Source: Candidatus Krumholzibacteriota bacterium
Lineage (GTDB): Bacteria > Krumholzibacteriota > Krumholzibacteriia > JAJRXK01
Assembly: GCA_963727455.1 (NCBI GenBank)
Contig: CAVSGG010000009.1
Span: forward strand, 64,001-128,000
Length of the DNA stretch: 64,000 bases
Direction of reading: 5' to 3'
Position numbers and translations under genes: made by a program. Every line of letters begins with the position of its first letter. The stretch's first letter is position 1. This document shows positions 27,009-38,956 of the stretch, piece after piece. Under the pieces are notes generated by a model that was given only the letters and a program-made list of their open reading frames with translations, searched no databases and was not told where the DNA came from.

Positions 27009-27247
27009 GGCGAGCCTCCGGCTGAGGGGGTGAAAGTGGGTCCGCCATCGGCTCGCTTCGCCTTGCCGCCAGCGACCGCAAAGAAGCAGTGTAGAAGCCC
27101 TGCGGGCGCGCGTAAAGAGCCGCGAGGGACAGCCAGGAGGCTTCGTGATAGGCTGACGGTGTGCCCTGTGCGGCGAAAGGTACGAAACCGACATTGCGCT
27201 GGCGCGTATGGGTTCAGGAGCGCGCCGTTTTGCCTTGGGGAGGATCC

Positions 27248-29245
27248 GTGATCGACCGCGAAGAGGAAATGCCCTTCACCGGCGAGTACCTCGACTTTGC
27301 TCATGCGAGCACGGACGATCTGCAGACGCGCATTTTCGAGCTGCTCACCCTCGTGGAAACCAGCCGAGAGCTGCTGCGTGCCCACGACGCGGACGACGTG
27401 GCGCGCCGGGTTCTGCTGTCGGTGATCGGAGTGCTGGGCGCCTCCTCCGCCAGTGTCCTCCGCCGAGATCCCATCGGTGAGCGCATGGAACTCTTGGTGC
27501 ACGCGGGACTGGACATCGAGGAAAGGCTCGAATTCCATCTTCAAAGCGCGATGGTGGAGGCTTTCGAACAAAAGAGCGATGGACGACCCTTCCGCGTCGA
27601 CCGGGACCTCGTCCAGGGGCCGGCTCGCGATTTCCTGCACTCCTACGACACGGTGTTGGAAACTCTCGACGCGGCGGTGGTGTGCCCTCTCATCGGGCGT
27701 CAGGGGCTTTTCGGTTTCCTCCTCTTGGGACGCCGCCTCTTGAGCGAGGGATACTCCTCCAACGATCTGGAGGTCTTCGCGAGCTTGGCCGAGCTCTACA
27801 CCCTGGCGCTGGAACGCGGCGCCGGACCCGCCCCTATCCTGGGACGCGCGCCCGCGGAAGTACCGCGCGAAGTCTCTCTGGCGCTGCGCGAACTGCGCGA
27901 ATTGTATCCTCCGCTGCGAGGAATCCTCGGCGAGAGCGAGGCCATCCTCCAGCTCTTCCGTGACATGGTGCAACTCGCGCCGAGCCGCGCCACCGTTCTC
28001 ATTCAGGGAGAGAGCGGCACGGGAAAGGAGGTGGTGGCGCGCGCCATCCACGAACTCTCGGCCCGGCAGGGAGGCCCACTGGAGATCGTCGACTGTTCGT
28101 CGATCCCGCGCGAGCTCATCGAGAGCGAGCTCTTCGGGCACGTACGCGGCGCCTTCACCGGCGCGGTGCGCGATCGGCGCGGCGCCTTCGAGTTGGCGCA
28201 CCGCGGAACCCTGTTCCTGGACGAAATCGGAGACATGAGCCTTGCTTCGCAGACGCGTCTCTTGCGCGCGCTGCAGGAGGGGCGCTTCCGTCCGGTGGGC
28301 GGGGAGAAGACGAGATCGGTGGACGTTCGGGTGATCGCGGCCACCAACGTCGATCTGAGAGAAGCCGTCGCGCGCGGGGAATTCCGCAAGGACCTCTTCT
28401 ATCGGATTCAGGTCTATCCCCTCAGGCTGCCCCCCCTGCGCGAGCGGGTGGGTGACATCGCCATCTTGAGCCGCGCCTTCCTCAAGCGCTTCTACGCGGA
28501 CTTCGGGTTGAGGGAACCCGTGGTCGATCCGGAAGTCATCACAGCCTTGCAGGCCCATCTCTTTCCGGGAAACGTACGCGAACTCCAGAACATGGTCGAA
28601 GCTCTGGCCATCAGAAGCCGTGACGAGCGCCACGTGCGACTCGAACATCTGCGGCGCGTATTCGCGAGTCAGCAATTGACCCAGCGCCCTCTCGCGGATG
28701 CGCGCCCCGAGGAGAAATCGGCGGGCTCCTTAGCGAAAGAAGCCGCCGAAAGTGAAAGGGCCGGGCGGAAATTCCCCGTGGGTGACGCGGCGGGCGAGGC
28801 CGTGGCGCGCGCGCAGGAACTCACTCCCCTCAGTGACGACGCCGGTGAGGCCGTGGCGCGGCAGATCCTCGACGCCTGGCGCCAGACCGGCTTCAATCTG
28901 CTGGAAGCCAGTCGCCGTTTGAAATCGCTCCGGGCGCAGGGGGAGAACGTGTCCATCGTGGATCGAGTCCAAATGAACCACTACCTCGACGGGGAAACTC
29001 TCAAGGCCTTCGCGGCCAGTGGATCCACTGCGGATGTCGTCGCGATGCTGAGCTCGGGCTCCGAGCCACGTCACCGCGTCGCCCGCCGCACTTCCCGCCT
29101 GTTGCAACAGGCCCTGCAAGCTCTACGGGAAGATTCGTTGCACGAAACTTTCCAGCGCCTGCCGGCTCAGTACGAACCCGTTTTGCGCAAGCTGCAGAGC
29201 AAGGGCGCCGCCTGGATGCAGAAGCATCTGCAGACGGACTCCTGA
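27248..29245 (+). CDS. sigma54-dependent enhancer-binding protein (GAF + AAA+)
   Basis: N-terminal GAF-like region, [36 protein letters not shown]; long atypical C-terminus. Confidence 0.93.
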
Positions 29246-29307
29246 ACTGTGGCTCCCGAAGTGGAGCTCCTGGACTGTCGCTACCGAGCTGTAGCTCCTG
29301 CACTTTG
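29238..29307. repeat. Degenerate 14-bp tandem repeat x5 starting at the activator stop codon
   Basis: actcctgaactgtg / gctcccgaagtgga / gctcctggactgtc / gctaccgagctgta / gctcctgcactttg. Confidence 0.75.
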
Positions 29308-29310
29308 AGG

Positions 29311-29356
29311 CAAAGAAAAGCGGGGCGCCCTCCCTGAAAGGGACGCCCCGCTTTTC
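29311..29356 (-). terminator. Intrinsic terminator, likely bidirectional, longer U-tract on the minus strand
   Basis: GAAAAGCGGGGCG...CGCCCCGCTTTTC; minus strand ends CCCCGCTTTTCTTT. Confidence 0.85.
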
Positions 29357-29701
29357 GGGACTGGCGACGGGACCAATTCGGTCGGGCACGATACTCCCTC
29401 GCCAAGAGCACCGGCCACTTCGTCGTCAGCTCGGGGTTCGCCGATGCCGGGCGGCATCTTGCGGGAGTTCTCGCCAACTCCCTGGAACCCATTCTCAGCA
29501 ACGGAACCTTCGATTCGCTCCAGCGCGATCCCCCATGGGGAACGCCGGTCGAGTGGGGTCGTGGGGTGACCGGCGTCGCGCTGCCTTGTCGAGCTCCCTT
29601 TGGGGCTCCGTCTCCTCTCCTTCCACACTTCTCACGCCCTTCTCCCGCGGGCTTGCCGCGGAGTCCAGGGTCGTGAGTCAGAGGTGTCCGTGTGGCATCG
29701 C
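29311..29701 (-). ncRNA. Candidate sigma54-dependent structured non-coding RNA, about 390 nt
   Basis: Bounded by a -24/-12 promoter and a terminator; at least five internal hairpins; no credible ORF. Confidence 0.6.
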
Positions 29702-29710
29702 CCTCTCCCT

Positions 29711-29728
29711 AAGCAGGGCCGATGCCAA
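29711..29728 (-). promoter_or_regulatory. sigma54 (-24/-12) promoter
   Basis: Minus strand TTGGCATCGGCCCTGCTT, i.e. GG-N10-GC. Confidence 0.7.
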
Positions 29729-29749
29729 CTTTTCTCCTCTTTGGACAAC

Positions 29750-29896
29750 AAAGATCAAGCCATTGAAATACAATGACTTAGTGGTATAGCTCCTTCGGAA
29801 CCCCTCTGAATGTTGTTGTGAATTCCCAGCCGGTTCTCTGCAGTTTTTGTTGTTGCATGTTGTGACACATCAAAATTGAACAACATAAATGATGTC
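29750..29896. promoter_or_regulatory. AT-rich upstream region with IHF-like site and TGT..ACA UAS-like elements
   Basis: GATCAAGCCATTG (about 29753-29765) resembles WATCAA-N4-TTR; TGTTG-rich segments and TGTTGCATGTTGTGACACA lie about 110-190 bp upstream of the predicted start. Confidence 0.55.
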
Positions 29897-29970
29897 AAAG
29901 CTGCTAGCCGACTGCAAGAGACGTATTTGCGGGCTTTCTTGGGGCTTGGGGTACTGCTACTCTGGGAAGC

Positions 29971-31350
29971 ATGAGCAAGGCCTCCACACTCTGGCACGGC
30001 ATCGATACCCTGGTCTGCATGGACGCCCCGCGGCGGGTACTGCACGGCGCCTGGATCCGCAGCGAGGGTCCGCGCGTGCTGGAGCTGGGCGAAGGGAAGC
30101 CAGAGCCACGAGAGGGCGAAAGCGCGGTGGATTTGGGCGGGGGAATCGTGATCCCGGGCCTGGTGAACGTCCACCACCACCTCTGCCAGAACCTGACGCG
30201 CGCCTACGGACCCGCGGCCGACGCCGAGCTCTTCCAGTGGCTCACCACGCTCTATCCGATTTGGGCCGGCTTCACGCCGGAAAATCTGGATCTCGCGGCC
30301 CGTGTGGGATTCGCCGAGCTGTTGCTTTCGGGCTGCACCACCACGAGCGACCACCACTACCTCTTCCCGCGCGCGGGCGCATCCGAACTCTTGGATGCCT
30401 CCTTTCACGCCGCGCAGAGGCTGCGCATCCGCTTTCATGGCACTCGCGGATCGATGAGCGTGGACGAATCGCAGGGCGGTCTACCTCCGCGTTCGTGCAC
30501 CCAGGATGAGAGCATGATCCTGCTCGACAGCGAGCGCGTCATCAAACGCTGGCACGACAGGGCGCGCTACTCGATGCACCAGGTCGGGCTGGCCCCCTGT
30601 GCCCCCTTCTCGGTGAGTCAGGATCTCATGCGCGAAACCGCGCGTCTGGCGCGCGCGGAGGGAGTCCGCCTGCACACCCATCTCGCGGAAACCCGAGACG
30701 AAACGGCGTACTGTTTGGAACACTTCTCCTGTCGTCCGCTGGACTTCCTCGAGGAAGTGGAATGGGTCGGCGACGACGTTTGGCTGGCACACGGTATCTG
30801 GTTCGAGGAGAGCGAAATCGACCGCCTGGGAAAGGCGGCAGTGGGGATCGCCCACTGCCCCACCTCCAACATGCGCCTGGGTTCGGGAGTCTGTCCGGTT
30901 CCCGAATTGCGCGCGGCCGGAGTCGCGGTCGGTTTGGGAGTGGATGGGAGCGCGAGCAACGACACGGCGCACATGCTCAACGAGGCGCGGATGGCCCTGT
31001 ACCTGCGCCGACTGGAAAGTGGTGCGGCAGCCATGACCGCAATGGAGGCGCTCGAGCTGGCCACGCTGGGCGGTGCTCAGTGCCTGGGACGAGAGGAGCT
31101 GGGCTGGCTCGGAAAGGACTCCGCCTGCGATTTCGCGCACTATGATCTCGACGGGGAGATCGCGGCCAGCGGCGCCCACGATCCCCTGGCCGCGCTTCTC
31201 TTTTGCGGTCCCCTGCGCGCCAAGTCCGTCGTGGTCAATGGAGATCAGGTGGTGAGGGAGGGCCGCGTCCTCAGCGAGGATCTGGAGACGCTACTGCCAG
31301 CGCATCGCGAGGCGGCGCGGCAGCTGGTGCAGGCCGCGCGCAGCTCCTGA
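29971..31350 (+). CDS. 8-oxoguanine deaminase-like amidohydrolase
   Basis: PGLVNVHHHLCQNLTRA, LAPCAPFSV, LHTHLAET, HCPTSNMRLGSG, GVDGSASND. Confidence 0.88.
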   Translation: MSKASTLWHGIDTLVCMDAPRRVLHGAWIRSEGPRVLELGEGKPEPREGESAVDLGGGIVIPGLVNVHHHLCQNLTRAYGPAADAELFQWLTTLYPIWAGFTPENLDLAARVGFAELLLSGCTTTSDHHYLFPRAGASELLDASFHAAQRLRIRFHGTRGSMSVDESQGGLPPRSCTQDESMILLDSERVIKRWHDRARYSMHQVGLAPCAPFSVSQDLMRETARLARAEGVRLHTHLAETRDETAYCLEHFSCRPLDFLEEVEWVGDDVWLAHGIWFEESEIDRLGKAAVGIAHCPTSNMRLGSGVCPVPELRAAGVAVGLGVDGSASNDTAHMLNEARMALYLRRLESGAAAMTAMEALELATLGGAQCLGREELGWLGKDSACDFAHYDLDGEIAASGAHDPLAALLFCGPLRAKSVVVNGDQVVREGRVLSEDLETLLPAHREAARQLVQAARSS

Positions 31351-38688: not shown

Positions 38689-38830
38689 AAGCGAAAGTGA
38701 GCCCGGTACCGTCCGCTGTCTCCGTCGTCCTTCCCGCCTCCCATTGAAGAAGAACGATGAAGACAGCCCCCGACGAAACCGGGCTCGCCGCGTTCTTCTT
38801 GCAGGCTGGATGCCAAGCGGGAAGCATCGC

Positions 38831-38874
38831 AAAAAAGCAGCTCCAAGCCCCCTTCAGACAAGAGCTTGGAGCTG
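38831..38874 (-). terminator. Intrinsic terminator downstream of the C25 peptidase gene
   Basis: CAGCTCCAAGC...GCTTGGAGCTG stem followed by CTTTTTT on the minus strand. Confidence 0.75.
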
Positions 38875-38956
38875 AACCCTCCACCGGTCTTCGCGCTCCA
38901 CTCGCCGCCACCCGCTGTCCGGCGTTCGACAGCCCGGACAGCGGGGCAGCGACTCC

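Follow-up and report, generated by a model that had tools for sequence, protein, structure and literature searches.

A probable sigma-54-driven structured RNA family paired with its own enhancer-binding protein in Krumholzibacteriota

To our knowledge, nearly all sigma-54 activators with a dedicated small RNA (sRNA) as their output come from Proteobacteria and Myxococcota, the examples being CrcZ, GlmY, Qrr and Pxr. GlmY under GlrR is a protein decoy and Qrr under LuxO acts by Hfq-dependent base pairing, both being made from sigma-54 promoters with a dedicated enhancer-binding protein (EBP, the sigma-54 activator). CrcZ is about 400 nt long and carries about six motifs. In CsrB, RsmY and RsmZ, which are not known to be sigma-54 dependent, each of many hairpins shows one short loop motif, and the copy number varies between lineages. 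A passage of one report describes CrcZ as RpoN-dependent, activated by an EBP, located beside the EBP gene and sequestering an RNA-binding protein through repeated motifs (PMC5113210). Sections of another place Pxr in the intergenic region beside the sigma-54 regulator nla19, with its own predicted sigma-54 promoter and enhancer and several stem-loops, and describe the Pxr-nla19 adjacency as conserved while other neighbours change (PMC5568312). Here we describe a locus in a 64,000-nt stretch of DNA (the window; positions 64,001 to 128,000 of contig CAVSGG010000009.1, called C9 below, assembly GCA_963727455.1) from a Candidatus Krumholzibacteriota bacterium. Judged from sequence comparison, it very probably gives rise to a stand-alone, non-coding, structured RNA of about 390 nt that is transcribed from a sigma-54 promoter as far as a hairpin which it shares with a convergent EBP gene, and we are confident that this is a real and new sRNA family with an activator of its own. 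A sequence-only reading of the window had proposed a novel sigma-54-driven structured RNA paired with its own EBP, and the comparative tests reported here support that proposal.

The element lies in a 725-bp intergenic region between two plus-strand genes, an EBP gene that ends at 29245 and a gene for an amidohydrolase that begins at 29971. On the minus strand of this region, a -24/-12 element is followed by some 390 nt of GC-rich sequence and then by a hairpin with a U-run (Table 1). With Pxr of Myxococcus it shares the placement of the sRNA beside the regulator, a sigma-54 promoter with an enhancer, a multi-hairpin fold and the conserved adjacency; however, Pxr is about 108 nt long, has three stem-loops and lies downstream of nla19, whereas the RNA described here is about 390 nt, convergent, provided with repeated loop motifs, found in an unrelated phylum and without similarity to Pxr. 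With GlmY and Qrr it has in common a sigma-54 promoter and a dedicated EBP driving a regulatory sRNA, but these are much shorter members of proteobacterial Rfam families, and Rfam gave no match here. If correctly read, the locus extends the same activator-sRNA design to an uncultured phylum related to the Fibrobacterota-Chlorobiota-Bacteroidota (FCB) group, and adds to it an RNA family absent from databases, a new motif repeated in the hairpin loops and an activator whose C-terminal domain is unrecognised.

The window belongs to a bin of 18 contigs (3.46 Mb, 88.85% complete, 6.68% contamination). The segment C9:12-228961, which includes the window, is syntenic from contig end to contig end with C8:260690-498684, with about 216 kb aligned at 85.8% identity. 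Because the duplicated length matches the contamination estimate, we read the C8 copy as a co-binned relative, two related populations having probably been binned together, rather than as a duplication, and used it as an orthologue. A BLAST search of 61 related genomes found the element in six, its own genome counted. A covariance model of the 3' domain (R1), which scores 196.5 bits at the window, was run on 151 genomes of the class and matched strongly (67-199 bits) in eight of the family's nine other genomes, across four genera. Elsewhere in the class R1 reached 22-25 bits only, and these matches in other families were treated as chance or terminator-only matches. A metagenome scan, blind to the RNA because the C-terminal domain of the EBP was its only query, found ten loci; in all six with an EBP of the type found in this family (f1), the RNA stood just downstream on the opposite strand, with scores of 47.6-198.7 bits. 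Two of these six duplicate known genomes and were left out, which gave 14 distinct sequences from four genera of one Krumholzibacteriota family, the co-binned second copy and four metagenome contigs.

Across these 14 versions the RNA is 326-403 nt long. All of them keep the promoter, the upstream hexamers, the structured RNA and the EBP gene converging on the 3' hairpin, so that the convergence on a sigma-54 activator gene noticed in the window holds for the whole set (14/14). The amidohydrolase gene adjoins the RNA in 6 of the 10 genome loci, and the EBP gene is the only conserved neighbour, which gives no support to an earlier suggestion that the RNA governs the surrounding amino-acid and fatty-acid catabolism. 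In the window and in 15 related loci, all Rfam families stayed below their gathering scores, in agreement with the earlier failure to recognise a known RNA family; the best match at E<=10 within 29200-30000 was a microRNA model on the terminator (E 0.26). Between the co-binned copies, the RNA is 87.4% identical (85.6% in its 5' domain), against 84.4% and 84.9% for the flanking coding sequences; the enhancer region is 68.6% identical and the 65-nt spacer after the EBP stop codon 44.6%. These values bear on the idea that the RNA acts in cis, convergent transcription or pairing at the shared terminator modulating the 3' end of the EBP mRNA as feedback. The convergent layout with one shared hairpin, present in 16 of 16 loci, would suit such a role, but the conserved part is the RNA body and not the spacer beside the EBP stop, the hairpin separates the two transcripts, and interference would have no need of about 340 nt of covarying structure; we consider cis action very improbable.

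Table 1. Coordinates of the features of the locus, as positions within the window
Feature	Position	Strand	Description
EBP gene	27248-29245	plus	probable GAF-like N-terminus, sigma-54 AAA+ core, unusual C-terminal domain of about 135 aa
EBP C-terminal domain, about 135 aa	28823-29245	plus	conserved, including DR.Q..HYLDGE...RHR..RR...FPRLP..Y
Upstream activating sequence, cluster of TGTTGT/ACAACA-type hexamers, AT-rich	29745-29863	none	putative; five exact hexamers
Sigma-54 (-24/-12) promoter TTGGCATCGGCCCTGCTT	29727-29710	minus	GG at 29725-24, GC at 29713-12, predicted +1 at about 29700-29701
5' domain, more variable	29500-29701	minus	purine-rich tract and hairpin 29576-29542
Hairpins of the minimum-energy fold	29661-29645, 29607-29591, 29576-29542, 29482-29463, 29458-29443	minus	
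Hairpin with C-rich loop	29576-29542	minus	9-bp stem, large loop ACCCCACGACCCCACUC; C-rich motif CACCCCAC duplicated here
Conserved 3' domain	29312-29499	minus	P1, H1, H2, P3, H3, H4, terminator
P1, closing helix	29490-85/29439-34	minus	closes three-way junction with H1 and H2
H1	29482-63	minus	helix of the comparative structure
GGCGAG, H1 apical loop	29470-29475	minus	GGCGA invariant in 14/14
H2	29458-43	minus	helix of the comparative structure
P3, long-range helix	29429-21/29369-61	minus	encloses H3 and H4
H3, third motif hairpin	29414-29388	minus	
GGCGAG, H3 apical loop	29398-29403	minus	GGCGAG invariant in 14/14
H4	29382-72	minus	
3' terminal hairpin and U-run to about 29311	29318-29353	minus	helix 8; between the RNA and the convergent EBP gene

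The promoter has the fixed-spacing -24/-12 core of the TGGCAC-N5-TTGC type (TGGCATCGGCCCTGCT at 29727-29712). Sites of the form TGGCAY-N5-BTGCW occur twice in the window against 0.31 expected, and 4 of 100 shuffles reach two, so that a single site is by itself only mildly unusual and the case for the promoter rests instead on its conservation: TGGCA[CT]-N5-NTGC is found in all 14 homologues, 169-245 nt 5' of the 3' domain. In close relatives, sequence identity begins at the predicted +1. The genome encodes RpoN (Sigma54_DBD, 217.8 bits, on contig C8). Upstream of the promoter (29728-29900) the G+C content is 39%, compared with 63% for the whole window, and 29745-29863 is the only cluster in its own genome of at least four exact TGTTGT/ACAACA hexamers beside a sigma-54-like site. 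With a broader set of hexamers for the homologues (TGTTG[TC], [GA]CAACA, and TGGT and ACCA variants), 2-8 copies were counted upstream and 0-1 in the RNA body. They recur at about -118, -150, -160, -172, -183 and -193, within a range of -118 to -195 and at a spacing of roughly one helical turn, and we presume that they are putative EBP binding sites. An AAA+ EBP and upstream sites about 100-200 bp from the promoter, as is to be looked for in a sigma-54 system, would thus both be present. The -24/-12 promoter with a start near 29701 and the AT-rich upstream region proposed by the sequence-only reading are both in place, and the promoter stays with the activator orthologues.

The minimum-energy fold of the RNA has -195.5 kcal/mol, against -165.1 +/- 5.5 for shuffled sequences (z = -5.55), and none of 100 shuffles folds as well. 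It contains every hairpin named before the comparison, and the last two of these, together with the 3' hairpin, also belong to the comparative structure; the hairpin with the 9-bp stem and the duplicated C-rich loop is likewise there. Helices P1, P3 and H3, the GGCGAG loop motif and the enhancer hexamers were missing from that first list. When the 14 sequences are aligned to R1, pairing holds in 92.2% of the cells of the 3' domain, and both partners have changed in 33 of the 53 pairs. A caveat on these figures is that the alignment holds only 14 sequences and was made by fitting them to the model, a procedure in favour of the structure. Controls with slid partners gave 44-52% paired and 6-18 double-changed pairs, none of 500 shuffles reached the observed value on any of five structure measures, and an independent MAFFT/RNAalifold analysis of seven sequences returned the same helices. 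The compensatory changes therefore exceed those of the controls, as would be expected of a structured non-coding RNA. P1 (GGGUUCC/GGAACCC and five compensatory variants) is present in all 14 sequences. The strong terminator proposed at 29356-29311 is there as a hairpin with a U-run, and it covaries: 95% of its cells are paired, and 8 of its 15 pairs have changed at both positions; it probably terminates both the RNA and the EBP transcript. A simple terminator scan of the window did not list this hairpin, likely because the U-run pairs with an upstream A-run.

Two open reading frames overlap the element on the minus strand, at 29281-29628 (115 codons) and 29001-29501 (166 codons), and there is a 6-codon AUG frame at the 5' end, where AUGCCACACGGACACCUCUGA is identical in the four closest sequences. 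Any of these might make the transcript the mRNA of a small protein. However, between the co-binned copies substitutions fall evenly over the three codon positions in the RNA (15/16/18), in contrast with the third-position bias of the flanking genes (52/30/224 for the EBP gene and 30/21/155 for the other). Indels of 1 and 2 nt occur within the candidate frames, which shift between homologues; in the co-binned copy the loss of a single nucleotide splits the 115-codon frame, and none of the frames persists across genera. Both long frames read through the terminator and neither has a Pfam match, and the short 5' frame is missing from G004 and from the other genera. A small-protein mRNA is extremely improbable, and the earlier statement that the region holds no convincing open reading frame stands, since the long frames exist but are not conserved as frames.

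The EBP matches Sigma54_activat (1.5e-67) and AAA_lid_14 (7.4e-18) of Pfam, and GAF_2 with 25.3 bits, below the cut-off of 28.6; none of the NCBIfam equivalogs searched against it reaches its cut-off. Its likely start is the GTG at 27248, after GGAGGA, and this start with its Shine-Dalgarno sequence is kept in 9 of 9 orthologues. Most orthologues have GTG or TTG after GGAGGA. An element of the form TGCTAGGCT/TGCTAGCCT, resembling an extended -10 promoter, lies about 40-60 nt 5' of the EBP start in 5 of 9 orthologues (L141-L147; about 27180-27247 in the window). The C-terminal domain has no recognisable HTH_8 and no significant Pfam or PDB sequence match. It was used for the orthologue searches in place of the full-length EBP, whose search of the genome contigs was unusable, with 80 loci from many phyla that matched the AAA+ core only. 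Among 208 genomes of the phylum the domain occurs in 14, namely 9 of 10 in family f1, own genome included, and 5 of 7 in a second family, f3. Within f1, the RNA and the domain are found together in the same 8 of 9 other genomes, and G003 lacks both. In tblastn searches, the EBP orthologue is 55-86% identical over about 480 residues and converges on the RNA hairpin in 10 of 10 genome loci. The genome G005 carries a second, diverged copy of the C-terminal domain (72 bits, L162, C26:19867-23262), which was rejected as a second locus of the RNA, as no such RNA lies downstream; what follows it is a convergent gene containing numerous APKQIASL-like tandem repeats, each about 11 residues long.

The most constant part of the RNA is a loop motif. 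GGCGA(G/A) occurs in 2-6 copies per RNA, 57 in total over the 14 RNAs, and 45 of these are in predicted apical loops; shuffled sequences have about 0.5 per RNA and the antisense strand 0-1. By orthologous loop, the motif is present in H1 and H3 in 14 of 14 and in the terminator in 10 of 14. The 3' domain has 13 invariant unpaired columns, of which 11 are in the H1 and H3 loops, and the stems that carry the loops covary. The copy number differs between lineages, and the motif itself is constant. Such a pattern bears on the idea that there is no functional transcript and that conservation stems from DNA-level elements, that is, protein sites and a terminator. Compensatory changes on one strand are hard to explain without an RNA, the motif is strand-specific, and the promoter sits exactly at the edge of conservation, so that we find this explanation hardly credible. 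A modest enrichment in GGA triplets had also been reported; the excess is real but small (13 copies against 9.3 +/- 2.6 in shuffles), and GGA is not a conserved feature, the invariant loops carrying GGCGA(G/A) instead.

Number, loop position and invariance of the motif, its varying copy number and the parallel with CrcZ lead us to regard a decoy role as the most likely one by analogy, although we propose the RNA as a CrcZ-like decoy for an RNA-binding protein only tentatively. Like CrcZ and CrcY under CbrB, the RNA would combine control by sigma-54 and an EBP, a comparable length (326-403 nt), a place beside the EBP gene, a repeated motif and a catabolic setting. The differences are considerable: CrcZ has A-rich AAnAAnAA motifs bound by Hfq and Crc, whereas here the motif is GGCGA(G/A) in hairpin loops and Hfq was found in none of the ten family genomes; CrcZ lies downstream of the EBP gene on the same strand, whereas this RNA is convergent; CbrB is a response regulator, whereas the EBP here is a probable GAF one-component sensor; and there is no sequence or Rfam similarity between the two RNAs. 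In the proposed mechanism, a small-molecule signal sensed by the EBP would switch on the RNA, the C-terminal DNA-binding region of the EBP binding the TGTTGT/ACAACA enhancer at -118 to -195, and the RNA would be the main and perhaps the only output of this activator. Acting in trans as a multivalent decoy, it would display its GGCGA(G/A) loops on 2-6 hairpins, where they would bind and titrate an RNA-binding protein other than Hfq, ProQ or, in this genus, CsrA, and the titration would relieve or impose the control of mRNAs by that protein, as in CrcZ under CbrB. The only candidates for the titrated protein that can be named are two encoded RNA recognition motif (RRM) proteins (C9:505106-505315 and C14:14687-14896).

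Several observations weigh against a decoy. Of the usual partners, Hfq was found in 0 of the 10 family genomes and ProQ was not found in the own genome. CsrA reaches its cut-off in 120 of the 208 genomes of the phylum, those of the family's other three genera among them, but is above cut-off in none of the five genomes of the window's genus (89-98% complete), four of which carry the RNA; in the own genome (88.85% complete) it has no match at E<=0.001. GGCGAR is common in this GC-rich genome, with 1.3 copies per kb per strand and 321 clusters of at least three within 250 nt, and since GGC-GAG and GGC-GAA codons are frequent, raw cluster counts are not evidence. The window's own RNA has three GGCGAR, two of them in loops, a count that is unexceptional alone because the hexamer is so common genome-wide. 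UGGCGAG hairpins are not enriched in the genome, with 75 of 963 (7.8%) against 6.2-9.2% in six scrambled controls, and the genome-wide hairpin search found no set of target mRNAs carrying the motif. Lastly, a second element with a claim to function, a C-rich motif, is conserved in 13 of the 14 RNAs and mostly unpaired.

The distribution of CsrA suggests that it was lost in the window's genus, and this speaks against a sponge of the CsrB/RsmZ type. The design of many hairpins with a loop motif is the same as in CsrB, RsmY and RsmZ, GGA is in modest excess, and CsrA is widespread in the phylum and present in the three sister genera. On the other hand, four genomes without CsrA above cut-off keep the RNA, the invariant loops hold GGCGA(G/A) and not the GGA of the CsrB/Rsm family, and there is no Rfam match to CsrB or Rsm; we see only a very slight chance of a CsrA sponge. 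According to PMC13443453, CsrA homologues with a predicted function occur at low frequency in Krumholzibacteriota. Our search of the literature for the phylum name together with sRNA turned up this paper on CsrA variation only and no small-RNA work, and none of the papers listed joined the phylum name with sigma-54.

The C-rich motif leads to a different mode of action. CC[CU]CA[CU] is present in the equivalent hairpin region of the 5' domain in those 13 RNAs, and this loop (CACCCCAC, often followed by GGACGUCAC) might be the seed with which a base-pairing sRNA finds G-rich sites in mRNAs, the GGCGAR loops being further seeds or structural; such a role could coexist with that of a decoy. C-rich loops act as seeds in sRNAs of the RsaE/RoxS type, in which unpaired C-rich apical loops could pair with G-rich ribosome-binding regions. 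Here, too, there are one or two C-rich apical loops, but the RNA is far larger, has another type of promoter and has no Rfam match. Shine-Dalgarno sequences are used in the family (for example, GGAGGA before the EBP start), and the different RNA of family f3 also carries C-rich motifs. Against base pairing, conservation is weaker in the C-rich loop than in the GGCGAR loops, and the few leaders examined share no conserved complementary site: the ribosome-binding region of the EBP gene matches in part of the genomes only, and the double UUGGGG of the amidohydrolase leader is missing in G001. A length of 326-403 nt is also great for such an sRNA, and Hfq and ProQ were not found, though neither is required in many lineages. 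We regard base pairing as the main rival of the decoy and as somewhat less likely. Pairing of the C-rich loop with neighbour leaders and the EBP ribosome-binding site was tried with duplexfold and rejected, the result being uninformative long duplexes and a G-run that is not conserved. Pairing of the GGCGAR loops with tRNA 3' ends (UGGCG-CGCCA) was rejected as too weak, with 5 bp only and for Ser and Asp tRNAs.

Another structured role, as a ribonucleoprotein scaffold, a ligand-binding RNA or a catalytic RNA, would make the GGCGAR loops modules of tertiary contact. The architecture is complex and conserved, with a three-way junction, a long-range helix and 7-8 helices in all, the apex of H2 (CC-GCYN-GG) is nearly invariant, and GCGA within GGCGA(G/A) fits the GNRA pattern. 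However, a sigma-54 activator of its own and a tight on/off promoter are more in keeping with a regulator than with a housekeeping RNA, no conserved partner for the loops, whether receptor or complementary element, appears in the alignments examined, and a number of motif hairpins that ranges from two to six is unusual for a fixed tertiary fold. A role of this kind seems improbable to us.

Returning to the decoy, it is possible, though doubtful, that the GGCGA(G/A) loops are the sites of a new global RNA-binding protein and that the RNA is its sigma-54-controlled antagonist, with input from a metabolite-sensing EBP whose DNA-binding domain is of an undescribed type. In a bolder variant, the loops may bind the arginine-rich C-terminal region of the EBP itself and so feed back on it. 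If true, a decoy would define a new RNA-binding protein system, and with a protein not yet described as the partner it would amount to a new post-transcriptional switch like Csr or Crc in a lineage in which neither Hfq nor ProQ was found and which has apparently lost CsrA in this genus. The RNA could serve as bait for its partner protein or its targets, and so as an entry into post-transcriptional control in Krumholzibacteriota. As promoter, enhancer, activator and RNA are compact and conserved, the module should be one that can be rebuilt in a heterologous host.

In family f3, all five loci (L124-L128, in G041, G026, G016, G011 and G031) have a convergent unit downstream of a distant orthologue of the EBP. 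The C-terminal domains of these EBPs are 27-33% identical to those of f1. The unit has a sigma-54-like promoter (TGG[CT]NC-N5-NTGC[AT]), an enhancer of a different, palindromic type (TGATGAATCATC), a terminator and an RNA that is about 235 nt long and carries C-rich motifs; the sequence, like the promoter, the enhancer and the terminator, is conserved in all five. Among the motifs of this RNA, UCCCCAC(A/G)CAGG and CUCCCCUCG occur in all five, a third run of at least five C has a varying sequence, and a 5' hairpin loop reads GAGGAU in three of five. The consensus fold of the five sequences has no net covariation support (covariation term +4.12). Because R1 scores only 7-14 bits at the f3 loci, homology of the two RNAs is unproven.

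Two further observations concern the surroundings. The product of the divergent neighbour at 29971-31350, the amidohydrolase, scores 620 bits with the NCBIfam model for 8-oxoguanine deaminase, whose cut-off is 532 bits, and only two of the four genera have this gene beside the RNA. A second sigma-54-like site, TGGCATCCAGCCTGCA, lies on the minus strand at 38800-38815, within the intergenic region 38689-38956; no terminator follows it, and it stands directly after a terminator-like hairpin 3' of a C25 peptidase gene and faces the 3' end of an acyl-CoA dehydrogenase gene.

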